A program made the translations under genes and the position numbers. Of a DNA stretch of 64,000 nt, positions 2,450-44,294 are shown piece by piece. The DNA is from Takakia lepidozioides (taxonomy: Eukaryota > Plantae > Bryophyta), in NCBI GenBank assembly GCA_030704615.1, contig CM060731.1, positions 31,930,001 through 31,994,000 on the forward strand, in the 5' to 3' direction. Each line of letters starts with the position of its first letter. Positions within the stretch are counted from its first letter, which is position 1. The notes beneath the pieces were generated by a model, which saw only the letters and a list, made by a program, of their open reading frames with translations, was not told the DNA's origin and searched no databases.

Positions 2450-3665
2450 GAGAGAGAGATTGTACTCATAAGACGTTGTTTGCCATAGCCTTGTGGACAT
2501 TGACCCCGCGCCCAGTTTGAGCGGGAACAAAAGGGACAGAACCTACCTCTGTTAGGGGCTGACGTTGGTAGTAAGACTTACCTTCATATATAGAATTAAT
2601 TCGGGTTTTCCAGATATCCTCTAGAAATCCTTCTTGTATAGATTGACAATGACGCCCTGTCACCAGCGAAAGGGGATTGTTTCAGTCTTCTAGATCAGGT
2701 TAAAGAGGAGAACTAGGGATTGAATTATGTCTTGAAGTTGATGGATTGAACCATCTCCGCCAACGCCTGATTTATGTTGGCAACCCGCATGGGATCGCCA
2801 CCGTGCTTGATAAGCTCGTTGACAATACCATCAGGTCCACCAGCTTTATATCCATTTAAATGTTCAATTGCTTCCACAATCTCAGAAGGACTAATGGGAG
2901 TGTTATAAGCCATTGAAATATACTCCAGTTCATCAGGGCTGTTTTGCATCATAGGAACAGTTTTTCCAAATGTGTCCCTCCATTCAGTAGAAGACCCCTC
3001 ACTGTTAGACCTAGAAGTTATGCCAAGGATACTGTAGTGAGTTTCAAAGGTTTTGACAATGTCAACCGATGAAGTCACCACTGCACCTTTAGTAGTCTTC
3101 ACGCGCTGTACTTGCTGACCGTTTTTTGGCTTGTACAAATGTTGAAGGGCCAACCAGAATTTCTTGTCATTACCACCATGGTGGTTTGAGTTTATTTCAC
3201 TGTATAACTTGTCCCAGTATAATTTCTTCTGAGACCTAACAAGCTGATTGATATCTTTACGGAGCTGGTAGTACCTCGCCCACAATTCTCTATTGGTTTC
3301 CAAATTGCAGCACTCTTTATAGAGGGCTCGTCTCTCAGCTATCTTGAGTTTAATCTCATTGGTCCACCAATTAACAGCTCTACATAGACAATTAGTTTCA
3401 TCCCAATGTCTTGTCAACCACGGAGGAAACGAAACTCTCCCAAGAGTCCCCTGCTCTTTCGACTTCATTTCTTGCGTTATCAGAGCGAGACTGAAGTTCT
3501 TGGAGCGATTGGACAAAATGAGGGAGAGCCTCTTGCAAGGCCTGGACATACTCAGCCTTGACCTCCTCATTATGGAGTTTTTCTATGCGCCACTTCCGAA
3601 TCGAATGTTTCACATATCTCTTGGTGTAGGAAAACACCTTTTGATCTCATTCCAAACCAGGAACT
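2450..3665 (-). mobile_element. Internally deleted LINE (3' tail joined to the ORF2 linker/RT N-terminus); continues at 15709
   Basis: ORF 2725..3570 has ISPSEIVEAIEHLNGYKAGGPDGIVNELIKHGG (pre-RT motif). 2450-2640 repeats the tail at 1883. Confidence 0.8.
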
Positions 3666-4013
3666 TGTCGTGCGCATACATATCGCTACACAACTACATC
3701 GCTGTCCAAACCACACCACACATATATGCACAATAAAGTAGTCTACCACAATCGCCCCCCTAGCTGGTGGATAGGTCCCTCTACCTCCAGATAGCTACAA
3801 GATGTAATAGCCACAGCCGTACTAAGTCCTCTATCACTGTCTTTATCGTGCTCAAACTCTATCAACCAAGAGGCCGGGTACAAGAGTAGCCCCATCGTTA
3901 GTCGCCGTCTTGCAATCTATGAACTTGAGCCAAGATCTCGTGTGTTCTAGGTCTCCTAGTAGCTGGGTCTTGCGTTTCTTGTTAACCTCCCATGGTTGTA
4001 TCCACTCCCACTA

Positions 4014-4160
4014 TCCAATGCAATGTGGACATAACCAATCCCCATTCGGAACCATCTCAAGAGGTGGAGTCAAGCATCCCATATGCCAACCTCTAGAGCA
4101 CCGATCACATACCAGCATGGTGGCTGCCCCTTTAGCAGACCCACACAACATGCACCTCAA
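4014..4160 (-). CDS. PHD finger at the integrase C-terminus
   Basis: CMLCGSAKGAATMLVCDRCSRGWHMGCLTPPLEMVPNGDWLCPHC = C4HC3 with the conserved W before the last CxxC. Confidence 0.92.
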
Positions 4161-7100
4161 ACCTGCAGATACCACTGCCAGGTTTGGGTCAATCCTGCCA
4201 TCGACATTCGGAAGGTGACATGGCGCACAATTACGCACATGGTCCTTCCAAGTGATGCCATCCCGACCCTCCAAGACCAAGACGCCTGAGGGCAAGACCT
4301 CTCGAACCCTCAAAATAACACGTCCTGCAGTCACATCCAGGGTCGTAGGAGCAGTCTGCTGCAGATAGACATAGTCACCAGGGTTGAATCTCCGAACCCC
4401 AGACGATAGCCCCCACCACGTATGGTAGCATACCTCAACGTATCACGGTGTTGTGCAATGGCAAGGTTCTCGAAAGCCATGGGCATGACTCTCTTGAACA
4501 ACTCTGCACGCTGCTCACATGCACGTGCCCACACGTCCGGATCGTCAAGGTTAAGAACTGTAGCAGCTTCTCTGCGAATGGATGTAGGCAAATCCGGCTC
4601 TCGGCCAAAGAGAAGAAAGTATGGTGAGAAAGAGGCAAGTGATGCTTGCTTGCTGAACCTGTAGCCCATGGCTAACCAGGGTAACTGAAGGTCCCAATCT
4701 CCTAGGTGTCCCTTCTGCAAGCCATACTTGCGCAAACCCCTCTTTACTGTCTGAACAACTCTCTCTGCCAAGCCATCGGCTTCAGGATGATCCCGAGAAG
4801 TGGTGCGGTGGTCTATCAAGGCTTTGTCACACAAAGCCTGAAACTCCCCCAAGAACTCTCTCCCTTGGTCCGTGAGTACCTCAGCTGGAGCACCGAATCG
4901 GCTAAGCACACAATCCAGGAATGCATACGCAGCTCCCTCACTAGCCTTATCAGGCAATGGAACCAATTCAATCCACTTGGAGAAGTGCTCCACCATCACC
5001 AACACGTACTTGTTGTGGCGCATGGTCAGTGGCAACGGCCCTGCGAAGTCAAGACTCCACCTGTAGCCCAATCCCATGATCGGAAGAGGTTGCAATTGTG
5101 GAGTAGGGGCGTTGAATGAAGCACGCACCCTGTCACATACCATGCACCTAGCCACAAAGTGTTGTACCTCTGTGTGCATACCACGCCACCAATACTGCCC
5201 CTGCAGTAGACTATGAGTGCGTCGCACCCCAAAATGCCCCAACTCCTCATGGGCATGCCGCACTAACCGTGCCCGCTGTGTTGGGTGAGGCACAATCCTC
5301 ACTCGACCATCCTCCCACACTCGGAGCAGGTGTGTCCCCTCCCACCTGAACCTCTTGGCTCGTTGTAGGATCCGATCCCTCTCCTTGGCAGTCATAGTGG
5401 CTGCCGTGTCTCCACTGCGGAGGTAGTCCAACACAACTGAATCCTCATGTATATCTTTGGCGCCACCCTGCTCATTGCTGGCCTCAGGGTCCTCAGACAC
5501 TTGATCTACAGTCATCCCTGTTGTAGGTCCAACCTGGCCTTCCGCTGCCAAGATACACAGAAATGCAGATGCATGCCATCCGGGCACCATCTCCTCGTCC
5601 GTCTCACCATGCCACCGAGCTCCAGTGTCATCCTGCTGGCTCGTGCATGGATTGCGACTCAACCCATCTGCATTTCGATTGACCAAACCCGGTCGATGCA
5701 CCACCTGAAAGTCATACTCTTGAAGGATGAGTGCCCACCGTGCAAGCTTCCCCGTAAGCTTGTCTGACTCCATCAACCACTTGAGTGGTTGGTGATCCGT
5801 GACAAGGGTGAAGAGATTGCCGTATAGATAGCACCTGAAGTGTGCCACGGCCCACACTGCAGCTAAGCATTCTCCCTCATATGAGCTATACTTAGACTCT
5901 GCAGCATTGTTCGAGCGGCTAGCATAAGCCACTACGAACTCTCTTCCCTCATCATCCACCTGTGTGAGCACCGCTCCAAGCCCCAGCATGCTCCAATCTG
6001 TATGCAGCTGAAAAGGACGCCCCCTGATAGGTCGTCTCAAGATGGGCGCCGAGGTCAACCTCGCCTTGAGCTCTTGAAAAGCTTGTTCTTGCTCATCTTC
6101 CCACTGCCACTCCTGGTCCACCTTGGTCAGCTTGGTTAGAGCCTTTGCAATGGCACTAAATCCCTTAACAAACCGTCTGTAATAGTTTGCTAACCCCATG
6201 AAAGCTCGAACTCGGCTCACATCCGTGGGGCGTGGAACCTGTGCAATGGACTCTACCTTAGTCTGCTGTACCCCCAATCCTCCAGGATATATCATGTGAC
6301 CCAGATACTCAATCTGGTTGTGGAAAAACTTGCACTTGCCCGGATGTAACTTCAATCCGTGCGTCCTCAAGCGCTCAAATACCCCCTGAAGGTGTCTCTC
6401 ATGCTCCTCCACCGTAGCACTAAAGATGATGATGTCATCTATGTAGCACCGAGCAAACTCCACCCCTGCTAGAATCCTGTCCATGACTCTTTGAAACTCA
6501 GCGGGAGCGTTTTTAAGCCCAAATGGTAAGAACCGCCACTGGTATAGGCAATCCTTCCCGTGCTCATTGATCCCCCAGAATGCCGTCTTTTGCTTATCCG
6601 CCTCCTTGATCGGCAACTGGTGATATCCGGATCGTAAATCCAACGTGCTAAAGACCTTGGAATGCCCAATGGCATCAAAGATCTCCTCTGGTGTTGGCAT
6701 GGCATACCTATCGGACTTGGTCTGACGATTTACAGGCCGGTAATCACCGCACATACGTCTCTCCGTCCAATTGCCATAGACATCCTTCTTAGCTGGCATC
6801 ACTGTGGCTGAAGCATACTCTCCACCAGAGAGCTCCACCAAACCTGCCTCCCAGAGATCTTGAGTCCTCATCTGAATCAAAGACCTCTCCATGTCACTGT
6901 ATCTATAGGGTCTCCGAAAGATTGGCGTGTCAGTGGCCAACTCAATACGGATCTCTTGACCCTTCAGTGCTCCCAAGTCCTTCAAACTGAAGGCAAAGCA
7001 ATTCCTGTAAGCCCTCAGGAACCGCCGTATACGTCGTCTCTCTCCTCCGGTGACAATGGGTCCAATATCAGGCTCCCAATTGTCCTCCGTAACTGCAACC

Positions 7101-7419
7101 TTAAGTCCAGTGGGCTTAGAGGTAGAGGACGCGTCCCGTGGTTGCTATGCTGCAACCTCTTGAGCAGTACCCCCTTCCTGCTCAGTCAATGACAAGGCCT
7201 CATCCTGCCCCATCATCTCATCATTGAGAACCTCCTCATCCATCACAGCTGCCTTCGCTGCCAACTCCCTCTGAACCTCGAGCACCTCCCACATGTGCCA
7301 TGGATGTCTACACCTCGTGGTCCTCACCGGCTCGCCCCCACTCGCTGCCTGTACCGTCTCGGTAGGCAGAGAGACCATCAAGGGAAGTGCACTCCGCACT
7401 CTACGTTGCTCAGCCATAG

Positions 7420-8372
7420 CCAAGCTGACAATCCAGGTCAAGCAATTGAGATCCATTGCTTGCCCCAACACCTGACGACGTGATGCCTCAGAAAGGGAAG
7501 GCACCGCCGTGGTCCCAGTGGAAAACCCCATAGCCCGCTCTCGCTCGTCGGCATTAGGCTCCACTAACTGCTGCAACTGAGCATCCCACAGGAGGCCAGG
7601 TCCACCATCCCGAAAAGCATGGGATCCTGGGAAGCTGAGCAGTGTAGGTAATGCTGCTCGTGGTTGACCCACCCTGTTGACCACTGCCAAAGGCGAACGG
7701 TCATCGTGTCTCACACGTTGAGACTGCCTTCCTGTGTCCAAAATGCCATCCACGGTGAGGTGTGCTGGCCGCTGCACCCCATCAAATGCACGCTTGAGCA
7801 GTGCGGGTGGCATCAAGTTAGTCCACCATAGTCGTGGACGATGAGCCCGTGACCCCACTGCAGCTGCATCCAGCAATACTGCTGACCCAAGCCACGACCG
7901 GACTTGATGCACACTGGCCATCACCCTGGCCCGAGAATCACCCATCAGTGGCACATTCTCCAAGATGTATGCCGGAGATACAGCCTGATGAAGCTGCAAT
8001 GGCGCAAAATCCGCACCATCTCCCAAAACAGACCCGTCCTCGAGTCTCGCAATCCATTGCCATGCCCGGCTGATGAATGCCCTTGGCAGGGCCAACCTGC
8101 CACTACCAGATCAATGGAGCCAACCCGCTCCAAATCCTGCGCCCCCAGCAACGCAATGTCTGCTGGCAAGGCCTGCTGATATCCACGAACTGCAGACACC
8201 GGCAACAACTCAGGGTGCTGCTGCACCATCTGAGCAACATGGCGCAGTGAGACGCGTCGTGCAGTCTCATCCCTCTCCACATACAGGTAACGTCGAACTC
8301 GTACACCTGCCTGCAGCACTGCAGCCAATCCAGTGCTGATCCCGCCAAATAAGTCCAGAAGGCATATGCCTT
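7420..8372 (-). CDS. DNMT3-like C5 cytosine methyltransferase domain inside pol, between protease and RT
   Basis: Motif I LLDLFGGISTG, II YVERD, IV VAGWPCQG, V GLRDSRTGLF, VI YILENV, VIII AHRPRLWWTN, IX ERERAMGF, X RRQVLGQAM. Order and spacing match DNMT3 catalytic domains. One 1-bp frameshift near 8000. Confidence 0.92.
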
Positions 8373-11300
8373 CATCCGGTCGCTGCCACACAAGAGGTGT
8401 GGTGTCCAATGGCGACAACTGAGGTGGCCCTGGTACAATCACCGCACTCTCCTCCTCTCCTGACGGTACAAAAGCTTCTACCCAAGCTTGTTGCACCCGT
8501 CCATCAGCAGCGTGCTGCAAATCCTTGCTCGTACCCCACAACGGAGTGTGAGCAACCATGGCAGGCAACTCCGCCGTACCATGCATGTCATCCTGCTCTG
8601 CTGGAGGTGGCACATCCTCTGCATGGGCATTGCCTTCCAGCAACTCTCCAGGCCAGCTGACTGCAGCTGTGAAGGCGGCTAGTGTTGGCATCTTGCCCCG
8701 CTGAGCAGCTGCAATACCCCCAATGAATGTCACAGGGAGCTGTGCACGGCGACCATCCCCTGACTGCCATCCAGGCCTGTAGGATGCTGACTCCTCCCAG
8801 AAATCCAGGGTGAAGCCCATGGGGTATAACACTGCCCCACCAACGAGGACATCGTAAGAGACCGCGTCTGTCATAATGGCCTTGGCTCGCATCACTGAGC
8901 CATCTACAGGATGATCCGGCTGCAGTCTAATAGCCAACTGATGCCGTGTCATGCCGCGAGCCTGCTCTGATCCTCCCAGAGATGTCTGTATCTGGAAAGG
9001 ACAAGGCTCCATATCCGCCTCCATGAGGCCCAAACCTGCAATAGCAGCTCTGCCCAACATCAGTGGCTGAGCTCCTGAGTCCAACAAGACCCGCAGTGGC
9101 CGGTACTTCTTGCCTGCCGGGCCACTCAAAGTGAAAATGCCTCCCTGGTTGTCTAACAAGACAACTCCAGGTGTCACCATGGCGCGCTCAAAGGCTGGCC
9201 TAGCTGGCAGCTCCGTCAATCTGGCAGCTGCAGCTTGCCAGGGCGCTGCCGTGGCAGTCTTGACCCTCAAATCCGAGGATCCCTCTGCCACTACACCTTC
9301 CACTAACTCCGCAGAAGATGAAGTGACCTCTCCACTCTCGCAGAGTGTTGCTGCTAGTCTGAACACTGCAGCTGGTCTCACTCCCGGCGTCGCAATCATG
9401 GTCGCCGAGAACAGTGGGGCTTGACACACAGAGGTGGCTGCTCCCAATAACACACCGGCTGCACTAGCCTTGGTAGTAGGTGTCAGTGCTGCACGGGTAG
9501 CTCTCCCCAATGGCATAGTAACCTCCGCCTCGGTAACAGTCGGGCGAGAACTAGGTGCCATGGATGGCGTTGACACTGTCTCCGCCAAGGTGAATGACTG
9601 AGGCAGCCTTGCCTGACGGCTTGCCTCCCCACGTTGTGGATCCAACTCCACCTCTGCACCTCGTGGCTCAGGAACTCGTGTTGCTCCTCGAGTCACGGCT
9701 GCAGCAGACTCCACCTGCTCTAATGGTAGTGCTGCTCCGCACATGAATCCCATTCCGCCCATATCTCCTCCCTCAGGAGCAGGAGGTGGGCCATCCCGCC
9801 TGGGAGCCGGTACCGCCTGAGCTATTGCCATGGTAGCGAGCCTCTGCTCTAGCTGCTGAAGCCGATTGGCCATGCCTTGGTCAACACCCTGACCTCCGCG
9901 TCCTTGGCCATGTGGAGGTTGCCCTTGGCCTGCACCTCGTGCCCGACCACCTCGTCCTCTTTGGGCTGGTCCACCTCGCCCCCGGCCACCATTGTTCCCT
10001 TGGAACTGGCCTGGGCGCAACTCAGGATGCAAGTCATAACACTGGGCATCTCCATGCCCATACTTGCCACAATGCCCACACTGCAACTGTGCAGGCTGTG
10101 CTTGTGCCGGCCTTCTGCCACTCTCTGGGCAATCTCTCTTGACATGGGGTCCTCCACATGTCCAACATATCACCCCTGGTTGCTGTTGGCCTGCAAAAGA
10201 TGCCACGGGCCTCTGCACCTGAGGTCCCCTGTAAGCTCCATGGAACTTGGGCTGGGCAACCTTGCCCCCCTGACCACGCTGTTGGGCAGTCCCTTGTGCT
10301 TGTGGGCTGACAGCTGTGCCCCGTACAGGCATGTCCTTACCAAATCCAATTGTAACAACTCGCTCCTCCACCATGTTGAGCTCAATCCGCTCAGCCAGCA
10401 GAAACACATCTGCTAATGTGGGTTGGGCTGCTTGTAACAGGGTTGCATCTCGCACCCTTCTCTTGAGCTCCTTGTCCAGAATTCCATACCAAAACTGGAT
10501 TGCCTGAGCTTCAGTAACCCCTTGGGTCACACTTATCAAGCGCCTCATACGAGTGTACGCCTCTCGCAGGCTCTCACTGGGTTTGCGCTGGAAGTCTTGC
10601 AAACTTCGCAGCTTCTCTGTCCGTACACCTTGGTAGTTCCTCCGCAACTCCTGGAAGAACTCCACCACCGGGTTGAATCTTGGCAAATGTGTTGTAGTCG
10701 TGGCAGGAGAAGTAGTAGCACCTTTTGAACTGGTACCACCTTCAGAAGTACCAGCGCTACTTGCTCCACTACTAGTGCTGGCAGTGGAAGCTATTGGTAC
10801 TGATGCAGCTACTGGTCGCGTCGTGCCTCGAGTAATGGAGACGTAGTCAGGTGACCAATACATCCTCCACTCCTCAATCTCTGCTTCATGTCCTCGCCTG
10901 AACTCGTGGTAATCGTCCATAGGCGGGCCTTCCAAATGCTGGAACAGTCCCTTCCACGCCATGAATGGGGTGAATAGCTGTGGATTGCGCATCTGCTGCA
11001 AATCACACCAGCTGTCGAACTCCTGGATAAAGTCATCCAACTCGATTGTGCCCACAGCTCCAGAGTACCTACGAGGCCCCTTGGTAGCTCCATACATCAC
11101 CTCCATGTCGTCCCACAACAATGGCGAATGAAAGTGCACACCTGTTGATGAAGCCTCCGAGTCTGTGTCTGACGCTACAGTAGTTGAGGGTGGCGGTGAA
11201 GGTGGTCTGAACCGAATACCTCGTCTTGTGACCCCACTCTCACTGTCACTGCTTGTAGCCGTACTCCCCTCAAAACCCTTGGGTAACTCCGTAATGACAC

Positions 11301-11841
11301 TCACAATGTGCACCTCCTCCACGTGACACTATAAGGCTCTAGTACTAATCTAATAGTGACACGGGTGGGCACCTGTTGCAGTCTAAGGGTCATATCCCAA
11401 TGGCTCAGGGCACCTGCACCTGCATCCACCGCAAGAACTCCTATGGTTGGCTGGTCATCAACCCAGCCTCACCGTAGAAGAAACACTGGTGGTCTTGCTG
11501 GTCATCACTCCAGCCTCACCACCGACAGCATACTCTAGGATTGACCGGTGATCAAATCCGGCCTAATCCCTATGAAAGCAAGCGCCCACACAAAACCAAC
11601 ATGGCGCACAGTCAAGCATGCAGGTGTTGGGGGGGATCCAAACACAAGAAATCAAAACATCAACACCCCCACACCAAAATCCAGCAGCAACGCTGATCCT
11701 GCAGAATATCCCAGCCCAAAACCCCGGACTGGCTGGCCTCCACCAAGAGAGGCTTTGGCAACTACAAGTACAAGGTAATGAAAATAGTACAGAGATGGAG
11801 GGGAAGAATAGAAGCCCGCCCAAGCAAGATCTAATCCTGAT

Positions 11842-12564
11842 CTATGCTATCAACTTCCAGACTTCTCTCAAAGTGCCTCGCTCTGCTTGATGGTAAGGTG
11901 TAGGAGGTATATCTATGTCCAGAAACCTGCCACTAACCTTGTCCCAAGCTACAGTAGCTCGCTCTAACCAACCCTCCTCCTCTTTCTGCCAGGTAGAGAC
12001 AAAGCAACACTCTGCTATCTCCCGCTCACTGAACACTAAAGAAAACAAAGGTAGGGTCTGATAGTCTCTCAACTCGAAAGCTTTGAGACGATTGCGGGTG
12101 TCTTCATTGCGAATGACTGCATCGCCTTCAAACAGAACAAACTTGTCCTCGCTAATGAACCCCCGCTCGTGGTTGCCTTGTGCAGAGCGTGTCCGACTGC
12201 AACACTGTCTAATTGCACAAACTTGTGCAGCTCCTGCTCCTCTGCTCCAGTACACCACGGCCTTGTGGCTGAACACCTTGGTCCCCGGGGCTGTCTTTGG
12301 CTGTGTTCCAAGCCTAGCTTTCACCCACTTTGGTATTTCACCTACAGCTGCAGAACTGCTGGCTCCAACAGAGTTCTGACTGTTCAAGGCGATATTGAGG
12401 CCCTCAATGCCAACTACAGCAGTCTGTTGTCTACTGCTAATGCCTGACTCCCAGTATGCAATCAACTCGTCCAACTGTTCTCCACTCAAAGTCTGAGTTC
12501 CTTGGGAAACATAAATCGGTGTCCCCTTGTGTGCACAGACTAAGAGAAGAGACCTGCCCTTCAA
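11842..12564 (-). CDS. Extra ORF of unknown function upstream of gag
   Basis: 240-codon open frame on the gag-pol strand. The true start is probably frameshifted (ATG near 12590). No recognisable motif. Confidence 0.45.
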   Translation of the reverse strand: MKGRSLLLVCAHKGTPIYVSQGTQTLSGEQLDELIAYWESGISSRQQTAVVGIEGLNIALNSQNSVGASSSAAVGEIPKWVKARLGTQPKTAPGTKVFSHKAVVYWSRGAGAAQVCAIRQCCSRTRSAQGNHERGFISEDKFVLFEGDAVIRNEDTRNRLKAFELRDYQTLPLFSLVFSEREIAECCFVSTWQKEEEGWLERATVAWDKVSGRFLDIDIPPTPYHQAERGTLREVWKLIA

Positions 12565-13296
12565 TTACGTCCTCATTTCCCCCAGCCATGCATGGAGTAC
12601 ATCCACCAATTTGTCTCTCATATAGACCAGCACAGGTTCTAGAGACAGTATTGTGGATCTTTCATGGCACACTCACACTCTAAAAATTCCATAGATTTTT
12701 AGCAGAGTCCCCAAAACAGAAACCAGGTTTAGATAGGTAGATTTCCCCTTTCTGCAGCTATCCCCCAAAAACTGGGTCAAACAGAGTCCATTTGACAAAG
12801 ATATGATGAATTTGGCTCCAACTCATTCAAATTAGATTAAAAAGGGGTTTTTTTTTTTTTTAAGGTTTTCAAGTTTTAAAAATTCAAAGTTACACCCAAA
12901 ATATCTGGTAACTGGTTCCCGGTTCCCTAAGTTCTATATGGCATCCTAGGTTCCCTGGCCACGTGCCTGCTGTTCCCCTCCATTTCATTTGAGTTCAACA
13001 GCTCACCATGCTTTGGAATCCCAACCGTCTTCTACCACAAACCGTGGTGACGATGGAGTTCGTGAAGCGATCCTTCCCAGTAAACCCTCGAGAGACGAGT
13101 CCCCTGTGCACTTGATATACACTCTCTTAATAGAGATCAAAATCAGCAAGGAGACACCATTGACGACACCCAGAGATCAGAGACAAGTACTTGCGCAGTT
13201 CGGAGGCCACAGCATCCCCTCTGGACACTGAGCGGGGAATAGCTGCTACACAGCAGCTCAGTCTATCGTCAGCTCCTATACCTACTAGCTTCCTGC

Positions 13297-13690
13297 CCCT
13301 GCCATAATCAAAGAGACAAGTGACACAACACCAGCTGGAAACACCTTTCCTGAATTTTTGTATCGAGAGCCCATCACAAACAAGAGAAGCCCTGAAACAG
13401 CAACACCGATAGAGGACGCAAGGACAGGGTTCGAGGGCAGGTTCAGATAGACATAATAGAGGATCAGAGCTGACCCTCCCCCTGACAGCAATGACTTGCT
13501 GCTCCCAGATTTTGCAAATCCGATCACTCCTCCCAGACCAACAAGGACTGCATACGCCAAGGTCAGCTTCTGCGACATAGACAGCTTCATCTTTCCGTCA
13601 CCACTTCCCTCTTCCTGTCCTCCCTCACCACCGTTCCTGTTGCCTCCATTGCCCGACACTTGGGTTACATGCTCAGCCAGACCTTCAAAA
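13297..13690 (-). pseudogene. FAX2: Captured fragment of plastid fatty-acid exporter FAX2-like (TMEM14 family)
   Basis: Gly-rich linker then SMSQKLTLAYAVLVGLGGVIGFAKSGSSKSLLSGG...MGSRYKNSGKVFPAGVVSLVSLIMAG. Truncated at both ends; no intron visible. Confidence 0.85.
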
Positions 13691-14541
13691 ACCTGGCCCA
13701 AAATTCACTGGCTGCTCGGACACTGACATGACCAAACCTCTTTAACTCCAATCAGCCTGCTGCTGAGTTACGATCTCATCACCAAGCAAAATCTATCCCA
13801 ATGCCCAGTTGAGCTGCCAGTCTCGCATTCACTTTCCCCACCAAGGCAGCTGCAGTACACTGACTGTCTTAGCTCCCTCCATGACAACCTCCCGCATTTG
13901 GGCAAGTTCAGCTTCACGGACCTCCCAGCGACTTAGCAGCTGCTTCAGGTCATGGTCCTAGCTAGCGCATGCTGGGCTGCAACCAGTTGCAGATCCTTAT
14001 CGTGTAGAAACCCCTTCACTGCTCTCTTTCCATCTCCTGATGCCATGCTCCATCCTCCAGCCACTTCACTTGTTTCAGGCACCCAGGTCCCTATGGGCAG
14101 GTCACATGCTCCTGTGCCAGCCAGAACAGTGACATTCGACCCCTTCGTCTTCAGGAACAAGCTGGTAGCTTCCTTGATGTCATCAGTTTCCTGGACACTT
14201 AAACGGCAGTATGGTCGCCACCTCTGATTGAGGCAGTAGTGGTGACGAAAGGAGAAGAGAACACAGGGAAAGAGCGAGGAAAAATAAGGGCGGAGAACTG
14301 CTCATGTCAAAAGGTCAAAGCCAGAGAGGTCGAAACATTGTGCGAAGGGGGGCCGTGTTTCTGCTGCCCTCTCCCACTTCAGCGCAACATTCAGCGTCCA
14401 GAGAGTGAAGTCCCTCAAAATTTAGAGAGTGAACCCACCGGCAACAGGAGTGCTCTCAAGCGGACATTGAGCGCCCTCCACTGACTCAGTTGAGTGTGCA
14501 AACCTTTCTGCTCATGCAGTTCCAGCAGTCAATACTCACTC

Positions 14542-15033
14542 CTAGTGATGATGATGCTCATGCCCTAGAAGACCACCCTCTCCTATCACCTTCAACTGAA
14601 AGACTTGGCTGCAGACTGAGCATTCATACTATTTGTCCTTCTCCAGCTTGAACCATGTCACATCATGCTCATCCTCACCAACACCTCCTGAGCACCCAAC
14701 TATCCGCTCATCATAGTGTGACTCCACAATTGCAGGGGCATCCTTGGTTCCAAAGGGACCACGAGGCGGATCCAGATCAAAGCGCTTCCCACCCGAGCGC
14801 TCCGCTTCCAACTCCTCCAGCTCAACTCCTGTTGCAATTCCAAAATCGCCCGAGCTGCCTCCTGCACTTGCCAAATCACGACTACGATGCAACCACCGCG
14901 CATATGAGAGACCCCGATGTTCTGATTACTCCGCTTGCAGTTGCGGGTTACACAGCAATGTCGGTGGAGGCACACATGGTACACGCCTGGATGCAACCAA
15001 CCGTGAGAGCCTGCATCCAGCCGTCCTCAACAT
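14542..15033 (-). pseudogene. COX5B: Full-length intronless copy of cytochrome c oxidase subunit 5b
   Basis: One frame of 164 codons: Arg-rich presequence MLRTAGCRLSRL, IATGVELEEL..GPFGTKDAPAIVESHYDERIVGC.GG.GEDEHDVTWFKLEK, YECSVCSQVFQLKVIG, stop at 14542-14544. Premature stops at 14926 and 14629. Confidence 0.92.
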
Positions 15034-15334
15034 AGCGCCCCACTCCCTCTGGGCCTTGCCATCACACCACCAGCTGCCATCGACATATCCTCCGCAGCCG
15101 GCGACGCCCTTACAGTGGAAGCACACCTCGCCAATGCCAACAGAAATATGGGCAGACCACCATTACTCTCTCTTCTACCACACCATTGCGACTGGAGATG
15201 TGAGGTGAACTCAAGCTAGAGCCGTTCTATGCTCCTTGCTTGAGCTGCGTACAAGACCATGACCATCTATATTATAATAGTGCTTAAAAAAACAAAAACA
15301 TCATATCTAGCTTAGCACTGGAAAACTAGATAGT

Positions 15335-15682
15335 GCTCATCTCTCTCGAGTGATAACCCAAACTAGATAAGGACACACACTCTCAACACAAGAAATATGC
15401 AATCCCTCAACATCACTCTTTAAGATAATAGTCGAGCCAGGGGCACCCCAAGCTATGGGGACTCCACCCCACAACAACCTACACTCCCATCATAAGCACA
15501 CTCAGATCTGAAGAATGCAGGAGCTCGGTCGCGCAGGCTCAACTCGAGAGAGATGAGCTGCGCGACTGCCGCTCTCGTGAAGATAAGACGGACCAGGTGT
15601 CAAACTAAACTTGACACCTGATTTAACACTTGACCTAAATCCAAGTGTTAAATACAAATAACTAGTTTTATGCTAGCTGTTT
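15335..15682. repeat. Cluster of inverted repeats at the 5' end of the DNMT-gypsy element
   Basis: CAGGTGTCAA/TTGACACCTG (15594-15620); ATTTAACACTTG/CAAGTGTTAAAT (15621-15653); GTCGCGCAG(G)CTCA/TGAGCTGCGCGAC (15528-15566); 17-bp perfect inverted repeat 15335-15351 vs 15542-15558. Confidence 0.85.
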
Positions 15683-15708
15683 TCACACTGTGCTTATTTA
15701 ACTTGACA

Positions 15709-16135
15709 AACTGGTCAGACGTACCAATATCAGTTCTGTCGATCAACACATTGGCACACTGGGGGAACAAATTTTTGTCCATTATGATATAATCCACAAT
15801 GGAACGTTCCCCAGTTTGGGATTTCTCACGAGTCCACTGCACTTGGTCACCTCTTGTCATGTTATTCGAGGTCAAAAGCTGAAGATCTTCTAGACAGTTA
15901 ATTAACCGTCTGCCATTAGAATTCAGTTCGTCCTCACCAAAAGGTCCAATGATATCGTCCTGATGGAGCCCTTTGCCCACCCGGGCATTGAAGTCACCCA
16001 ATAGCACCACCTGACCTTTGGCAAGGAACGAAGCACAGTCCAGCTTTACATCTTCGAAGGCTTTGTCTGCATCAGCACAAAGCGTCCCCTCTGTGGGGCA
16101 TGTAAACACAACCCACAAAGAGGTCCTTCGTCCTT
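15709..16135 (-). mobile_element. LINE apurinic-type endonuclease fragment (5' continuation of 2450-3665)
   Basis: LLGDFNARVG, NSNGRRL, SIVDYII, GTSD motifs in ORF 15648..16118. Confidence 0.88.
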
Positions 16136-16141
16136 GAGACT

Positions 16142-16144
<3 letters not shown>

Positions 16145-18010: not shown

Positions 18011-21000
18011 GTTCAGTCAAAAAAAGGAAGGGAATTGCAGGGAAGGATGCGAACGAGCATAAGTTTCTTACTCCAGCAAAGTGTGCACCAACTATTGCGC
18101 CAACTGCTGTGATGAGTGGTGCGGTTGTTCTAACTTACAAAAAACCAGCCCCGCCCACTCCACACACTGACGTTCAAGCTCCCTTGTATCCACCAGTATC
18201 GGCTCCTCCCTCGTATCCGCATATGTACCCGCAGTATCCTGCCATGTCAGGGTATAATCTGCATGGGCACATGCCATATCCTCACTATCAACCTCCAAAC
18301 AATGATCCTCAGTGCCAGAATTACAATTCTTTTGCTCCACCTGCAGGCGCTTCAATGCATGATCCTAGTCAAGGTGGGTATTCCATTTACCACCATTATG
18401 GAATGCATCCCCATAGTATGTATCATCCTCGGCCTATGTACAACCAACCTACTTCCTCCCTCTATCCTACCAGCCCTGCAAGACCACACCAGGGGCAGGT
18501 CCAGTATGGTGGCCACCAACCTTCAGGATCCAACTACAGTGGAGTACAACAGCCGGCACCTTCGAGCTTCACTGCACCGCGGCCACCTCTTTATCCAACA
18601 TCTCCAGGTACACCTAATACCCTGAAAGGGAAAGGCATTCTGAAACAGACCGAGGATGCATTTGCTCCGCATCATCCTGTGGGGTGGGAGACAGCAGTCC
18701 AGCCCCAACAGAGTGAAGGTGGTAACATGCAAGGTACTGCTGAAACCTTGCAGGATTCCAACCTTACTCCTGGGGGACATCAGGTGTGACTCCTATAGAA
18801 TGAAAAAATGCTTTAAGGAGGGAAAGAAGGGCACTTGCAAAAGATCTGAGAGACCAGGCTGCTCAAAATGTGGTTGTAGGGAGGAGGAAATTTTTCATTT
18901 CTTGTGATGAACTTGGAAACCCTGAAGGTCCTGCTCGGAACCAGTGGATGACAACTCTGCGAGGGCAGTGTCAACGTTTGTTGGACTGGTCATTGTATGC
19001 TCAGGATCAACCATTACACTTAATTGAAAAGATCATGGAGATCTTGGCTTCAGATTGGGAATACAGACCTCCTGGTCTTAACATAAAGGCTATTACAAAA
19101 ATAATTTGCGGGCAGCTCAAGTACCAACGAAATAAGCTGTTCAAAAATTACTATAGTGTGGGGCTGCCCAAACCCCATCATGTGCCAGACAAGACATGGG
19201 CACAACTAGTTGTTAGTTGGGGTTCCACTGATTTCAAGAAATTCCAGGCAAATGGTGTCAAGGCGCGGGGATGTGTGAAGAATACATCTCGATCGGGTCG
19301 CAGTGGAATCAGCGGTGTTGTAGCACGACTGGTATACTTCTCTTACAACATAGGAAGTTCCCACATTGTTTTGCATTGATAAACTTTATGTGTTGGGTTT
19401 TTTTGGCTAGAGCTCAGAGTCTATTCCTATATGGATGGAATTAGTACACATTGCTACTACTTGGGGGCCTTCTCATAGTTGGGCGCCAGCAAGAAACTAA
19501 GCACTCTTATTGAGGGGGAGTCATTGACGCTATCCTAGATAATTCTTTACTGTTGGCAGTGTGCTATGCTAGTCATTTACACTTGCAAGTTTGTTGCAAT
19601 CACAGGAGGAGACTGGACGTACACCAAGTTTGCAGGAGATCGCCGGTAGCGCCAAGAGTGACAAAGGCTACGGGTTGGGGTGTACAGGCAGTGCAGCCAC
19701 AACGGTATATAAACCAATTCTGGTGTGAATTACATATTCATGATTTCCATGCCATTGCTAGTTGCCGTTTGGTTCTCTTTTCTTACTAGTTCATCAGTTA
19801 GTGTAGTGAATTGTTACTTTGGAGGTGTTCTATGTGATGGGGTAGGGAATTGGTTCACTAGCAGCTCGCCTCAATGCTATGGAAAACAAACAAGTGCAGA
19901 TGGAAGCCAGCTCCAAGGCAGCTTCCAAGTCCAACTGGAGGCAGCAGCTGCATTCAACATTGTGCTAGCTAAACTTGGCATGAATGTGCCAGATTCACAG
20001 CCTACAGGTCCACCATGCACCACCTTTGCGCCACAGACAACAAATGAGATTATTTCTCATGTTATGGGCTCACCACTCAACCTGTTCAAGGCAGTTTCTT
20101 CACCGCCACCAAAGCCAAACACAATAGGCTCATTGTTTGGGCTTTCAGAAATGGAGGGGGATAATGACATGGAGGGTTGGTCTGAAGGTGAACTCAATCC
20201 ATCCCCCCATATTGTTGAGGCAACTGCAAAGTGTTCATCAGTCTTGTTGTCCCCTACACCAGTAGCACTGTCGGCATATGTACTACCCTCTCAATATGCC
20301 TGTGAGGTCTCCATGAATTTGCACAGTGCCCCACAGAAAGGTGTGTCTTTTGTACATGATAATCATGTACAAGTTGTAGGTAATTGCCCTTCGGCAACTG
20401 AGAGGCAGAAACACATCCTTATACTTGACTTGAATGGATTGTTATGTGAGAGCAGACTACGAACAAGGGAATACCTAGAGCCCACTGTCACCTCCAGACC
20501 TGGGTGTCAGGAGTTTCTGGACCGATGCCTTCAGATTTTTGATGTAGGTGTATGGTCTTCCATGTCATTGAGTAATGTCCTTCCAGTTGTGAAAGCTTTG
20601 TTTCGTGGGAAGCAACCAAAGATGGTGCTTCACCAAGACTATTGTCACCAGCCTGTGGGAATGGTGGACCCTTTCAATCCTTCTAAAACTGTCATGTACA
20701 AGAACTTATGTAAGTTCTGGAAGGACTACAGCCATTACAATCCAACCAATACTTTGCTGGTGGATGATTCCCCACTCACTTGCTTACCCAACCCTGCAAA
20801 TAATTGCATCTTCCCGTATCCATGGAAGTTGAGGGATCAGCCAAACTGCAAGAGGCTTATGAAAGAATTACTGCCTTGGTTAGAGGGTGTATCCAAGGCT
20901 GCACACATCCCTGAGTATGTGTCAGGGCACCCATACAGATATGGGCAGCCCAACTACTTGTTCAATACTGCAGCCATGGGTAGTGGATCACAACAATCTG

Positions 21001-21935
21001 CAAAGGCATCCGAACCAGGGCTTCATGCTGCCAGAGTTCCAACGACTTTGCCTCCCGATGCAACAACAAAGCATAATCAAAGAAAGGTGAGAGCAGAAGT
21101 TTCAATGCTTGGGCGCGTGGGTGGATTTGTATTGTTAATGCTACTTCACAATTTGTGTCATTCGTGCTATTCTCATTTTTTGATCGTTGTGGCATTCAAT
21201 ATACAGATGGTGAAACCAGTGAAGCGTTCAATGGGCAGGGAGAGTACAATATGTGCTATCAATCAGACTACAACCACAGTGGATCTAACTGAACCACAAG
21301 GTAACCAACAAAATCCGCACAGTGTAAGTACTTCCTTTGTGCAATTTTGTTTCCTTGTCTGATGTTGGATCAATACACCCCCTATGTATCGCCACATAGC
21401 TGCAAGCCCAACAACCTACAAAGGTAGTTTTGTGACATCGTCCTACCACATCCATGTTGACCATGCATAACCTGCTATCAACTAGGTATGGCACCGTTCC
21501 AGTTTTGATCATGTCAGCATGTAGTATAGAGACAGCAAATGCAATTCAGAATTGGAAGTATGCAATAGGTAGGGTTGGGGTGTTTGCTGGAAGAACTTCA
21601 ATGCCATTTTGCAGGAGTGCCAAGCTGTCAGTCTCTGTTCTCCAAGGTTCATTTCTGATATAGGAATCTGGTTTTTGTTGCAGTTTCAGATCGGCGACAA
21701 GGTGTTATTGTTTGATCCTTGTGCACCAAAAAGAAGGGCAGGTGTGGGATATATTGCTGGATTTCCGAAAGCAAATGTGCTAGACAACTATTACCGTATC
21801 CATGTGAAATCGGTCATGATTTCAGAGGTTGTGTTGCCGTACCCGGACTACTCTGTTACCCCTAATCATACCACATTGGGTGACACGCAAGGAAGTTCCA
21901 CCTTATGGTCTGAAAAGTTTCTTAAACACGCGTGA
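18011..21935 (+). CDS. Spliced CACTA TnpA-like gene: Pro/Tyr-rich region, Transposase_24-like domain, NIF/FCP1-like HAD domain, Transposase_23-like C-terminus
   Basis: PHHVPDKTWAQLVVSWGS..K..NGVKAR...SRSGRSG (18870..19379); ILILDLNGLL..RPGCQEFL..VGVWSS..KNL.KFW..NTLLVDDSP (20409-20830); YRIHVKSV..VVLPYP..TLGDTQGSSTLW (21685-21935). Exon boundaries are approximate. Confidence 0.7.
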
Positions 21936-22897
21936 TATTGAAGGTGCTACAAGTTTAGTTTAGTTTTCTTTATGGATTGAGGGTTGCTGAGACAGTTGAA
22001 CAAAACAGCTCTTTTCACATGAACAATATTTTTTGAATTGATGGTCTTGCTATTCTCATGTATGATGACAAGATCCCCTTGTTCAAGGGCAACTTCATTT
22101 TCCCACATCAAGCCAAATTTTTCTTGTGTAGACATGAATGTGGTATTTTGCTGGTTGTTTGCTATATTTAATATTAATAACATTACTACTGGTCAATGTG
22201 GTTAATAATACAATTATTATCCCTGTTTTAAATAAGCTTTTATTAAAATGAAACAAAACAAATAATAATTCTAAAATAATAATATATTACATATTAAATC
22301 AAGCAGCCAATGGCTTTTGGGGGTGCTATCCCATTTATAATAATAATAATAATAATAATATGACTATTCATTTTGGCATTTGTCAACAAATAATAATTGT
22401 TTACTTTTCGTCCAATAGGAACAAAATAATGGATATGACAGTATTCACACTAGTGTCATTGCGATCACACCACGACTTGAACCTGGTGTTAAATCTGTGT
22501 GAGAGAAGCCGTAAGAAGAGCCCTTAATATCTATTATTTATTTAATAATTCTGATGGACTCTATTACGTGGCATTCCCTTTGACATACATGTGGCAGACA
22601 TGGTGGCAATGAGGTGTAATAAGTACCGTAGAAAGACCATTAAGATTACTTAGTCAAAATAGTAGAACTAACCAGTCAAAACGGCCTTCAAAATATCCGT
22701 CAAAAGAGCCACCTAAACCTACTGCCACATCAGGTGCAAGTTTGGTGTGAGATGGTTTTTTTCACAGGACCAAGAAAGTTCACATGTGGTGCAAAGGACT
22801 AGGTTAACCTAACACCAAGGGGGGGTAGGAACATGGGCTCTTTTCACACCAAAATGTGTGAGAAGAGCCGTTAAAAAAACCGGTTTCTATATTAGTG

Positions 22898-24375
22898 ACA
22901 CCAACTTCCCACAACAATTTCAGCTCATCCACAAGGGGCTGCAGATAAACATCTGCATTGTCATTTCCCACAGATTGTGGTCCAAGAATCAATAAAGCCA
23001 ACATCGTGAAAAATGGCTTAGTACAGAGCCAGGGTGGAAGATTATAGTTCACCAACATGACAGGCCATGTTGACCATTTGTTTGATTTATCACTGTGAGG
23101 ATTGACACCATCCCATGCGAGACCCAATCGCAGATTTTTGGGGTCCGCTGCAAACTCAGGCCATTTTTGGTCAATGTGGGCCCAAGCCTTGTTGTCTGCT
23201 GGGTGCCTAACCAAGCCATCCTGACTTCGATTCTTAAAGTGCCATGACATTATCTCTGAGATGGACTTGGCTTTATACATTCGAAGCAGCCTTAAGATGA
23301 TAGGGAAATGTCGAAGGACCTTACGAGGTACTGGCGTCTTCGTACCCACCACATAACGACGTGCCTGACATTTTGGACAAACCTCCAAATTCTGAAGCTC
23401 CCTTCTGAACAACACACAGCCTTCCGGCCATGCATGTATACTCTCGTAATGAAGCCCGAGTTCCATTATGAGTTGTTTTGCCTCATAGTGGGACTTTGGC
23501 AGGCAATTGTCTGCTGGCAACAGTTGTCTTCCTAACAATGTAAGGAGTTCATCGACAAAGGTGTTTGACACACCATGGGTTTGACAAGCATTTAACAGCA
23601 GTAAGGTAGCAGACAATCGAGAGGAAGAACTCCCTACATATAAAGCCCTGGATACCTCGTGCTCAAAACGTAAGGCACTCGCTGCACCACGATCACCATC
23701 GCTTTGCAGTCCACCATCAGTTTGCTCTAGCACTCCATCTGTGTCCCATTGGCCCTGTGTTCCATCTCCCATTTCCTCATGTGCATCACCAGTTTGCACC
23801 CCATTATCTATAGTTGCGAATGTCTCCCGGAGCATTCTAAGCATGTCAAGATTACGATCCAAGGTATCAGGACCACCTGCAGGGCTGGTTTCCGTCCTAA
23901 ACCCCTCATGTTCGTCTCCAGAGTTTTCCTGCTTAGTACATATCAGATGCCACATGTCAGCCCACTATAAGATGGAGAGTTTTTTCATTTGCAATAATGG
24001 ATGTGGAACGTGCCATTTTACAGCCACGTGGCAATAGGAAAACGGACATGTACAATACTCTACACCTTACGACAATACCGCTACCAGGAATTTGAATTGT
24101 TTCTTATAATTTCAAAGTATGCATCTGCAAAGGGAAGAGAATCCAGAGAGATGCACCGGGAGTTCTCGTAAGTTAGGATCTCGCAAGTTCAGAAGCAGAT
24201 GACGCTTAGCCCGGCCAATGGTTTGCCAGTTCCCACCATGACAGGCATTGCATGGACATAGAATTTTCCGAAGACCCAGTCTTCTTGCTCGCGCTTCCTC
24301 TAGTTTCCACAATCTGTCATCGTCATGTTCTGCTTGTGTCCGCCTTTGCAATCGACAGGCAGTAGGAGGGATCAT
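22898..24375 (-). pseudogene. CACTA transposase (transposase-associated domain plus Transposase_21/TnpD-like), 3'-truncated at 22898
   Basis: ILCPCNAC..HL; CPKCQARRY, KVLRHFP, HPADNKAW, NLRLGLAWDGVNP, STWPVMLVNYNLPPW, DVYLQPLVDELKLLWEVGV. Confidence 0.92.
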
Positions 24376-42928: not shown

Positions 42929-43515
42929 ATGGAAAAGATGGAATTGATGATGAAAAAGCTGGCTGCTGTACCAGCACCAGGTTTACAGAAGACTTGGTTT
43001 GTGAGTGGACTAAGACCAGAGTTGCAAAAGAAAGTGGATATGTTACCCCATAATACAGTGGAGGAAGCATTTGAAACAGCGAACAGAATTGAGCAATTGG
43101 GAATGCTCAGGAGAGAGAAAAGGGATGATGAGGACTTTGAAGATGAGTCAGATGAGGAAGAAGAGCAAGAGCTAAAAAGGAAGAGTAAGAGGAAGGAGAA
43201 GTTGAAGAGGGATATCTATGAAAAAAGATTAGAAGAAATCTTGAAGAAGTATCCCACAGAGGCTGCAACACATTGGAGGAAGGGTGTTTGGTGTGCAAAG
43301 TGCCAGAATGAAGGCCATACCACCACTGAATGCCACATGAAGGAGAAACACTGTACTATCTGTAAAATGGATAACCATTCTACTGAGAATTGTTACTACA
43401 ATAGAAGGACAACAGCTAGAGAACCTAGGCAAGTAAGGGTGCATCAAGTGCAGCCCCAGCCAAGAAGAAACAGTGATCAGGACCACTATGGTAGGCCTGG
43501 TGGTTATAACAATGG

Positions 43516-44239
43516 TGTCGCGGCCCTTTGCCTTGAGGGCAGGGGGTCGGGACACATGAGGGGCTGCCCCTGTGGTGGGGGCAGCGGCAGCGATAGGTAT
43601 GGGGGGCTGAAGCACCCTTGAGTGCCCAAGGCACTCAAGGAGGCGGAGGCGCTCACTAGGTGGAGCCCCGCACACCGGGTTGCGGTGGAGGTGGCCCCAC
43701 AAGGGGTGGTGGTAGCTTAGTGGGACTTAGTGGGGGTGGCATAGGACTCACCATGGGGTGGAGACCTCGAGGTGGGAGTCGTGGGGAGTCTTGGGACTCA
43801 TCACGGTCCATTGGGGCCGCGGTGAGTGGGCCAAGACTCACCGCGACTCACCACCGGGAGTCGAGGGTTTTCGTGGTGGTTCGCCATAAAATGGCATGGC
43901 TGGTTATGAAACCCCCGCGGACAGCTACAGAAGTATATATAGGGAGTAGTAACCCCGAGAACGGTGCAAGCCCGTTGGTGACCAAAAACTAGTGAGTAAG
44001 CGAGCGAGCCGGAAAGCGACCAAAGAGTGGGGAGCTGTTCCGGACTGCCATCTACCAAAGGGAATTCTCCTAGTCCCAAATAGGTGGAGGGTTTAGAGGG
44101 AAGCGGAAGGGGACCGTTATGTCCCGGTGAGCAGCCGAAACTCCAAGTTGGCCCGGCGGCCAGGTTGGGAGTCAGGCGCGCGCATCAAAGCGAGTAACTA
44201 TGACTTGAAGGGGAGTTTACCGAACTGAGGTGTGCGACA
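43516..44239 (+). repeat. Chromovirus 5' LTR
   Basis: Direct repeat of 49762-50485; only one mismatch noticed by eye. Confidence 0.97.
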
Positions 44240-44294
44240 CTTGGTATCAGAGCTTAGAGTTCAGTACGCGATCGTCCTTGGGATTGGCCTCATC

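Follow-up and report, generated by a model that had tools for sequence, protein, structure and literature searches.

Analysis of a 64,000-nucleotide stretch of the Takakia lepidozioides genome (contig CM060731.1, positions 31,930,001 to 31,994,000; hereafter the window, numbered from its first letter) revealed a Ty3/gypsy retrotransposon on the minus strand that carries a DNMT3-like C5 cytosine methyltransferase (DNMT) domain between its protease (PR) and reverse transcriptase (RT). Pfam, fold and profile comparisons agree on this arrangement, which the original prediction had recognized. Two parts of that prediction had to be revised. The element is larger than the proposed 4011..11322, its ends and target duplication placing it at 3666-15708, and the DNMT does not lie within one continuous gag-pol frame, as a stop codon separates it from the RT. 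The family conserves this stop, and the DNMT is thus part of the Gag-protease open reading frame (ORF) and not of Pol. The coding features are as follows:

10402..11328, minus strand: Gag capsid region, open from 11328 with its first ATG at 11106; PF03732 below cut-off, Marchantia homologues start with MDGMYG at the same place
10039..10167, minus strand: two CCHC-type zinc-knuckle-like motifs, read off the translation, with no Pfam match
8767..9132, minus strand: aspartic protease, LLDSGAQ at 9087-9067; Pfam below cut-off, assigned from homologues and motif
7370..8370, minus strand: DNMT3-like C5 cytosine methyltransferase, unpermuted motif order, private frame break near 7999
7139..7147, minus strand: candidate type I readthrough signal, TAG (7147-7145) and CAA CCA (7144-7139), between the Gag-PR-DNMT ORF and the ORF for RT, RNase H (RH), integrase (IN) and PHD
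6200..7072, minus strand: reverse transcriptase, YIDD at 6445-6434; Pfam and motifs
5648..6100, minus strand: RNase H; Pfam and motifs
4406..5281, minus strand: integrase zinc finger (H 5251, C 5146) and D,D,E core (motifs at 5050, 4876 and 4768)
4399..4403, minus strand: frame break in the integrase tail, private to the window copy, from frames and contigs of other copies
4020..4154, minus strand: PHD finger at the integrase C-terminus; PF00628, E 1.9e-11

These features are read in four minus-strand frames: 11328-7945 (1127 aa; gag, protease and the first half of the DNMT), 8110-7145 (the second half of the DNMT), 7144-4331 (RT, RNase H and integrase) and 4442-4011 (integrase tail and PHD). 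The coding region comprises ~2,365 codons, counted from the ATG at 11106 to the final stop. The Ty3/gypsy domain order gag-PR-RT-RH-IN is present, with Pfam E values of 1.9e-32 for RVT_1, 6.5e-36 for RT_RNaseH, 9.1e-16 for Integrase_H2C2 and 5.3e-14 for rve; the Gag (E 0.0036) and protease (E 0.058) scores were under their cut-offs. Pfam found no recombinase family in the frames scanned, rve and Integrase_H2C2 being present instead, and no chromodomain after the integrase, where the PHD finger stands. Three lesions had been counted in the coding region by the original prediction, and three interruptions are indeed present, but only two of them represent damage. This is because, when contigs of four public sequencing runs were aligned to 3000-13000 of the window, those of other copies lacked the frame break near 4401 in all four runs and the break near 7999 in three, the fourth run having no cover there. 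The third interruption, the TAG at 7147-7145, is conserved in the family. The window copy is a damaged copy of an abundant Ty3/gypsy element; run X1 alone contained 94,448 contigs at >=80% identity, a figure that reflects a large family and is not a copy number. Given its two frame breaks and its missing second A terminal unit (A2, described below), the window copy is likely a dead end.

Related loci were gathered by a scan of metagenome contigs, and the best 80 of 100 loci were used. An adjacent DNMT-RT junction was present in 58 of the 80; in the 22 left out, the junction was absent or the RT was not adjacent. At 49 of the 58 junctions, CAR-YY comes directly after the first in-frame stop upstream of the RT, which occupies the homologous position, and five more have the same stop and context with an additional lesion downstream, for a total of 54/58 with TAG or TAA and CAR-YY. 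The remaining junctions had a doubled stop (2/58) or TAC (2/58; L039 and L042, probably one event). Two loci outside the junction count, L061 and L063, read TAG CAA CCC. CARYY followed the other premature stops of the same loci in 9 of 903 cases. Because most loci belong to one family, called Sphagnum-type for an ORF end like that of a Sphagnum jensenii protein, the stronger point is persistence across lineages. The signal is kept at dS >1.4 (window, L027, Sphagnum-type, L066/L067, L074), as TAG CAA CCA in the window and L027, TAG or TAA CAA CCC in the Sphagnum-type loci, TAG CAG TTA in L066 and L067, and TAG CAA TCA in L074. Strict CARYYA was matched exactly in the window, L027, L057, L066, L067 and L074. 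The stop switches between TAG and TAA and the second codon after it varies between Pro, Leu and Ser, which points to constraint on the nucleotides.

Other copies and annotated proteins are marked by the same boundary. Among 98 close homologous proteins, cluster members included and hence not independent, 83 end 40-140 aa past the DNMT, among them proteins of Marchantia, Calypogeia and Sphagnum; seven end sooner and eight later, five of these eight running into the RT. Run X9, from another organism, differs from the window at 40 of 381 letters, and among the changes listed none falls at 7139-7168, while a 96-nt contig of run X6 across the stop is identical to the window. When the 107 nt past the stop were folded in seven sequences, no common structure was seen by eye. 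An origin of the stop as a CAG-to-TAG deamination product was rejected, as a Gln codon was found at the site in 0/58 loci, TAC being the sole sense form. A UAG or UAA followed by CAR YYA constitutes the type I readthrough signal, which in tobacco mosaic virus (TMV) gives ~10% readthrough in vivo (PMC2754532, PMC3542737). Based on the conserved context, we consider it likely that the stop in this family is read through at low frequency; whatever the route by which it is bypassed, the DNMT is part of the Gag-protease product. Readthrough has reportedly been seen in plant retrotransposons as well (SIRE1 env, RIRE2).

The catalytic C5-MTase motifs named in the original prediction were all found, in the canonical, unrearranged order I to X: DLFGG (8355-8341), GWPCQG (8097-8080), ILENV (7966-7952), HRPRLWWTN (7843-7817), ERERAMGF (7546-7523) and LGQAM (7468-7454), all on the minus strand. 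The proposed search with PF00145 gave an E value of 2e-9, over the cut-off, from the first-half piece of the DNMT alone. As the window DNMT is broken, a natural relative (P0002, 75% identical) was folded instead, and the model had a mean predicted local distance difference test score (pLDDT) of 77.8. Its top PDB match was human DNMT3A (E 2.6e-16, TM 0.60/0.79), DNMT3A and DNMT3B being the best matches, and the family profile ranked DNMT3A (1e-22) ahead of DRM (1e-8) and M.HhaI (4e-6). By nearest predicted fold and profile, and by its unrearranged motif order, the domain is of the DNMT3 fold, or DNMT3-like, rather than of the DRM or DNMT1/CMT type. The catalytic Cys is kept in 72 of the 74 loci covering it and the Glu of ENV in 69 of 76, and the catalytic Cys, Glu and Asn and the S-adenosylmethionine (SAM) loop are nearly invariant among loci.

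The original prediction had raised absence of the DNMT segment from other copies, insertion boundaries of its own and neutral evolution as ways in which it could fail. The DNMT lies at the same place in other copies, shows no insertion boundaries of its own, and has a ratio of nonsynonymous to synonymous change (dN/dS) of 0.09-0.21 between lineages, with 0.13 for the unsaturated pair L066/L067 (dS 0.26). These sequence comparisons indicate that the DNMT is under purifying selection. Among close Sphagnum-type copies the median dN/dS was high throughout (DNMT 0.51-0.89, RT 0.31-0.73, IN 0.41-0.76), which is the expected decay after insertion, with the DNMT somewhat less constrained than the RT. 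CpG depletion was also considered as a sign of self-methylation, the observed/expected ratio being 0.43-0.59 over the element vs 0.84-0.90 over a young chromovirus at 44-50 kb of the window; it was rejected as evidence because age and host methylation account for it equally well.

Relatives of the element were found in the land plants Marchantia, Calypogeia and Sphagnum, bearing out the suggestion that the lineage persists in land plants, and also in Closterium and chlorophytes. A profile search returned 570 clusters at 50% identity with E<=1e-30. Among the 145 new representatives listed, RT or RNase H precedes the DNMT in 71 and the integrase directly follows it in 20 more; 12 have the domain order of the window and 42 the DNMT alone. 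Closterium has the window's domain order, and the named members with the order RH-DNMT-IN are chlorophytes (Scenedesmus, Haematococcus, Monoraphidium and the "Chrzof1" model). Many of the RH-DNMT-IN relatives have no precomputed PF00145 label. The named matches included no fern or lycophyte, no Klebsormidium-labelled protein was among the matches listed, and none of 13 pattern matches among viral contigs was a relative.

Trees were built with FastTree, with local support only, 25 of 135 eligible RH-DNMT-IN proteins and no DNMT outgroup. The RT-RNase H and DNMT trees share three groups, namely the stop-bearing group with Marchantia, the Closterium group and the RH-DNMT-IN group; the window element nests with Marchantia and Sphagnum-type copies, and P0066 and P0071 form long branches. 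Of the RT and DNMT phylogenies that the original prediction had called for, these trees cover the elements themselves, the Closterium group included. The shared groups fit one old capture, followed by a move of the DNMT within the polyprotein in one direction or the other.

A self-comparison of the window (E<1e-5, >=30 bp) revealed no pair of long terminal repeats (LTRs) around the coding region, and the ends were defined from a long interspersed nuclear element (LINE) that is interrupted by a 12,043-bp insert with TG/CA termini and a 4-bp AACT duplication:

3666..15708, minus strand: whole insertion, 12,043 bp; TGTCA start at 15708, CGACA end at 3666; form A-coding-B, terminal unit unrepeated
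15370..15708, minus strand: A repeat region (5' terminal unit), length assumed from the 339-bp A of related loci
3752..3761, minus strand: polypurine tract (PPT) directly before B, 86 bp inside the element end; the same tract stands before B1 in related loci
3666..3751, minus strand: B repeat (3' terminal unit), first and last letters as in the 113-bp B of related loci
3662..3665, no strand: left copy of the 4-bp target site duplication AACT
15709..15712, no strand: right copy of the 4-bp target site duplication AACT
15713..16142, minus strand: endonuclease part of the target LINE, upstream of the insertion (PF14529, E 1.9e-5; uninterrupted form in run X5)
2640..3661, minus strand: continuation of the target LINE past the insertion

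Elsewhere in the window's own family, copies join the 3666 end through GC to the 15708 end, which makes a B-GC-A junction. Full relatives have the form A1-coding-PPT-B1-GC-A2-B2 with 4-bp duplications (L041, with one mismatch in the duplication; L061/L063, which are one insertion; L071; L079), and their B-GC-A junction forms an internal palindrome, GACA-GC-TGTC. The short form A-coding-B was also observed elsewhere, with an exact duplication in L014 and with one mismatch in L042 and L057. The polypurine tract adjoins B1 and no element end, and no TGG-type primer site was seen by eye after A1 in the five full loci (no search for tRNA or self-priming was made). Neither integrated end therefore appears to be set by a primer. 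A second GACA-NN-TGTC motif, at 1224-1233 of the window, could be the junction of another split-repeat element or a chance occurrence.

The PHD finger, which like the split repeats and the actual ends of the element is absent from the original prediction, has CHD4, PHF12, KDM5A/B, ATXR5 and PHF21A among its best solved matches. A Trp two residues before the zinc His marks readers of H3K4me3. This Trp was present in 1 of 130 proteins (missing in 129/130 and in 14/14 loci), and a Gly occupies the position in 115/130 proteins and 14/14 loci; the Asp after the third Cys is kept in 125/130 proteins. These residues suggest, by a modest degree, that the PHD binds H3 tails without K4 trimethylation.

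Our best explanation for the whole, which we hold with somewhat more confidence than doubt, is that the element makes a Gag-PR-DNMT product, that a leaky stop adds RT, RH, IN and PHD to a fraction of it, and that many DNMT molecules per particle methylate the element's own new cDNA. If the rate were TMV-like, readthrough would give ~10x more Gag-PR-DNMT than full polyprotein. The protease would then, quite probably, free an active C5 methylase inside the particle. The substrate of this methylase may be the cDNA, most likely at CG, and the new copy would then enter the genome pre-methylated; we regard the chances of this step as even. For integration, we find it fairly probable that B-GC-A represents the unit duplicated by reverse transcription, that the cDNA ends are joined, and that the integrase then cleaves GACA-GC-TGTC in a staggered manner, after the CA of each strand. 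Both resulting ends would be CA-3'OH with a 2-nt 5' overhang, the form on which integrases usually act, and a two-repeat circle would yield the long form and a single-repeat circle the short form. Circle junctions have reportedly been described for the IS3 family. The PHD, finally, might tether the integrase to nucleosomes without H3K4me3, away from promoters, a step that we judge marginally probable.

Several observations count against parts of this scheme. The 58 junctions come mostly from the one Sphagnum-type family, several being the same insertion, and are not independent. Strict CARYYA was present at only 6 of 50 junctions, the last A being missing in 44. The commonest context, CAA CCC followed directly by ATG, would permit reinitiation in the Sphagnum-type family, and in the Candida element Tca2 an in-frame stop junction gave no readthrough in yeast reporters (PMC2194720). 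The DNMT-RT frame is open in some relatives (P0066, P0071, P0159, P0271, P0338, P0341), and a large set has the DNMT between RNase H and integrase (P0102-P0244, P0268-P0348), which means that Gag-level dosage is not needed family-wide. With respect to the enzyme, residues 263-303 of the P0002 model, likely the DNA-recognition region, have pLDDT mostly <50, so that CG specificity is by analogy only. The isolated DNMT of the Klebsormidium element gave no DNA methylation in yeast, a test that its authors call inconclusive; in the same study, Symbiodinium DIRS DNMTs methylated CG de novo in yeast (PMC5890265). With respect to the ends, B was found upstream of A1 in none of the 19 loci with a visible A1 start, and a symmetric two-repeat circle predicts A-B-A-coding-B among its products. 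An acidic residue before the first PHD Cys is used by some readers of unmodified H3K4; it is common in algal relatives, but was found in 1/14 loci and is absent from the window copy.

The DNMT could also be retained for a different task: it might coat or shield nucleic acid within the particle, act in trans on host DNA or integrated copies, or restrain the spread of the element itself. To this view we give a clear minority of the weight. Gag-level amounts exceed the need of one cDNA, elements without a DNMT have spread in the same window, and the negative yeast result is consistent with such a role, as are the host-benefit and other roles that the authors of that study list for retrotransposon DNMTs (PMC5890265). 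For a purely structural role, however, the near-invariant catalytic Cys, Glu and Asn and SAM loop would be needless, and fusion to Gag puts the enzyme at the site of cDNA synthesis.

No more probable, in our estimate, is a route to the ends without a circle, in which template switching during reverse transcription would yield linear cDNA with the two half-sites as its termini; the short form would then have arisen afterwards by B1-B2 recombination or assembly collapse. Recombination of B1 with B2 would leave exactly A-coding-B with the original duplication, and both the lack of the alternative cut product (0/19) and the nearly constant sequence of the A2-B2 junction are as expected on this route. 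The two element ends, though, adjoin no primer site, and short forms are frequent (L014, L057, L042, L021, L026, L043/L048, L050, L070) despite a B of only 113 bp. In addition, the A2-B2 junction of L071 contains 17 extra bases plus two from the PPT side, as a joined end should, although this is one case. We prefer cutting of joined cDNA ends at the palindrome.

A further alternative, that the RT-integrase part is made by reinitiation at a downstream ATG, from an internal promoter or by splicing across the stop, appears unlikely. It would suit the ATG that directly follows CAA CCC in most Sphagnum-type loci, the Met at codon 4 or 5 in L057 and L066, the annotated Marchantia and Sphagnum gene models that span the DNMT into the RT (P0004, P0005, P0013, P0045, P0050), and the weak promoter reported at the Tca2 junction (PMC2194720). 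There is, however, no early ATG in the window, L027, L067, L074 or L014; in all of these but L014, a Met first occurs 47-116 codons past the stop, inside RT-homologous sequence. In the window and most loci the two ORFs share a reading frame, CAR-YY persists where synonymous distance is saturated, and the stop terminates the Marchantia cluster members with 1278-1281 aa. We retain low-frequency readthrough as the more likely explanation of the junction. That a host DNMT3 fragment was captured recently or neutrally by one ordinary Gypsy copy is extremely improbable: the window copy does carry a FAX-like host gene fragment (described below), but the 570 clusters, the three main groups shared by the DNMT and RT-RH trees, and a dN/dS far <1 between lineages are not those of such an event.

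DNMT-bearing retrotransposons have been known since 2018 from algae that are poorly suited to genetics, with their role left open (PMC5890265). The closest described relative is KnitGypsy-Dnmt3, which was reported from one alga, Klebsormidium nitens, in few copies, with the layout A-coding-B-A-B (Fig. 4 legend) and a DNMT "in the Pol ORF" (PMC5890265). It resembles the window family in its Gypsy domain set, its unpermuted Dnmt3-like domain under purifying selection and its split repeats, the last being seen in our relatives and in the B-GC-A junction of the window's own family, of which the window copy is a short form. The likeness in repeat layout and DNMT type is drawn from its published description. 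The window family differs in occurring in land plants, in very many copies, in having the DNMT in the Gag-protease ORF before a conserved stop, and in the PHD on its integrase; a DNMT placed in Pol is foreign to the window's clade, but is seen in algal relatives. The term "PHD" occurs nowhere in the main text of that paper, and neither "PHD" nor "stop codon" in three of its supplement files; domain position, a PHD or an ORF break might be depicted in Fig. 4c and Supplementary Figs 13-14 of the paper (PMC5890265). SymbioDIRS-Dnmt3 of Symbiodinium likewise has a Dnmt3-family domain in a retrotransposon with split repeats, but uses a tyrosine recombinase and not a DDE integrase, and has the DNMT in one ORF with the RT (PMC5890265). 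EpiLTRs/DAM-LTRs are Gypsy-type elements with a DNA methyltransferase and a histone-reader domain, but the enzyme is DNMT4-related and accompanied by an adenine methylase and a chromodomain, in Cymbomonas and Euglena; in that preprint the streptophyte Gypsy-DNMT3 is given as a separate acquisition (bioRxiv 10.64898/2026.05.21.726589).

Likenesses also extend to systems without a methyltransferase. The type I signals of TMV, benyviruses and pomoviruses share UAG/UAA with CAR YYA and a polymerase downstream of the leaky stop (PMC2754532, PMC3542737); here, unlike there, the candidate signal is in a retrotransposon, stands after protease and DNMT and not after gag, and lacks the last A of the consensus in the commonest subfamily. 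Gypsy-7a_cRei of Chlamydomonas reinhardtii, set beside the window family by its description, is a green-lineage Gypsy with a PHD finger and an intergenic insertion bias, but has a left and right LTR and no methyltransferase given; intergenic insertions of the PHD-bearing Gypsy of Chlamydomonas were 2.6 times expectation (bioRxiv 10.1101/2022.06.16.496473). PHD-transposon fusions have been reported generally (10.1101/2021.11.30.470311). PAT, Ngaro and VIPER have A1-B1-A2-B2 repeats and use a tyrosine recombinase, unlike the window element with its DDE integrase, TG/CA ends and 4-bp target duplications (PMC4157794). A DNMT survey of 2025 continues to refer to the 2018 paper when it names streptophytes and dinoflagellates as bearers of such elements (PMC12344493), and the accessible text of a moss DNMT3 study has one use of "retrotransposon", unrelated to encoded enzymes (PMC6453930). 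No publication was found on the land-plant range of Gypsy-DNMT3 elements, the leaky stop, the PHD, the internal palindrome or the integration route, in a search whose reach excluded most subscription papers, Repbase, figures and bioRxiv supplements. Within the literature searched, the element is of a known kind (de Mendoza 2018), and its land-plant range, conserved stop and PHD are apparently unpublished.

The family offers a means of studying what retrotransposon DNMTs do. In Marchantia polymorpha, many copies whose Gag-PR-DNMT frame is open have been entered as hypothetical genes, and as Marchantia is a tractable model, the role of these enzymes is testable in a land plant. From the conserved stop one would expect as much enzyme as capsid, and this speaks for a function within the particle. 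The combination of split repeats and DDE-type ends suggests integration from joined cDNA ends, unlike the retroviral textbook. Bryophyte annotations gain DNMT3-like "genes" from copies of the element, and a survey that demands a 5'/3' LTR pair (the method of PMC6317226) would likely miss the family. We tentatively hypothesize, as a reading of all parts jointly that is less likely to hold than to fail, that an old green-lineage Gypsy clade carries an epigenetic kit consisting of a capsid-level DNMT3 made via a leaky stop, a PHD on the integrase, and circular-cDNA insertion at a palindrome. Its copies would arrive pre-methylated and be steered to H3K4-unmethylated chromatin, and in mosses and liverworts with many copies the enzyme could supply de novo DNA methylation from a source not so far recognised, the clade being missed by LTR-pair catalogues.

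Between the A unit and gag, two further features were found:

11845..12564, minus strand: 240-codon open frame in the element 5' region, recognized by its frame only
13288..13704, minus strand: intronless TMEM14/FAX-like host gene fragment inside the element (PF03647, E 7.7e-18), with an A-run at 12848-12861 downstream

The 240-codon frame is covered by contigs in all four runs; it had no Pfam match and no Atlas match >=0.9, and was absent from the 80 related loci. The FAX-like fragment has a Sphagnum protein as its closest named match (76%) and in a tree groups with this protein and others, apart from seed plants (Shimodaira-Hasegawa-like approximate likelihood ratio test, SH-aLRT, 96). This grouping and the nesting of the element with Marchantia and Sphagnum-type copies point to a land plant, probably a bryophyte, as host. 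It is likely a captured mRNA, and its presence in the window copy suggests that the element can capture mRNA.

Other transposable elements were observed elsewhere in the window. A young chromovirus-type Gypsy at 43515-50493 (plus strand) has 733-bp terminal repeats that are 99.5% identical, an open pol with SH3 and chromodomain, and high CpG. A CACTA-type transposase fragment (Transposase_21) lies at 22807-23964 (minus strand), and a PiggyBac-like transposase fragment (DDE_Tnp_1_7, E 1e-49) at 27336-27935 (plus strand); PiggyBac-like transposases are uncommon in land plants. Among transposon remains at 19713-21359 (plus strand) there is a 549-codon open frame with a NIF/FCP1-like phosphatase domain. 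The stretch 61180-61679 is a 500-base assembly gap, and arrays of a 10-bp tandem repeat with a GCTGTG core were seen within degenerate Gypsy-like elements at 34240-34357 and 53661-53820.

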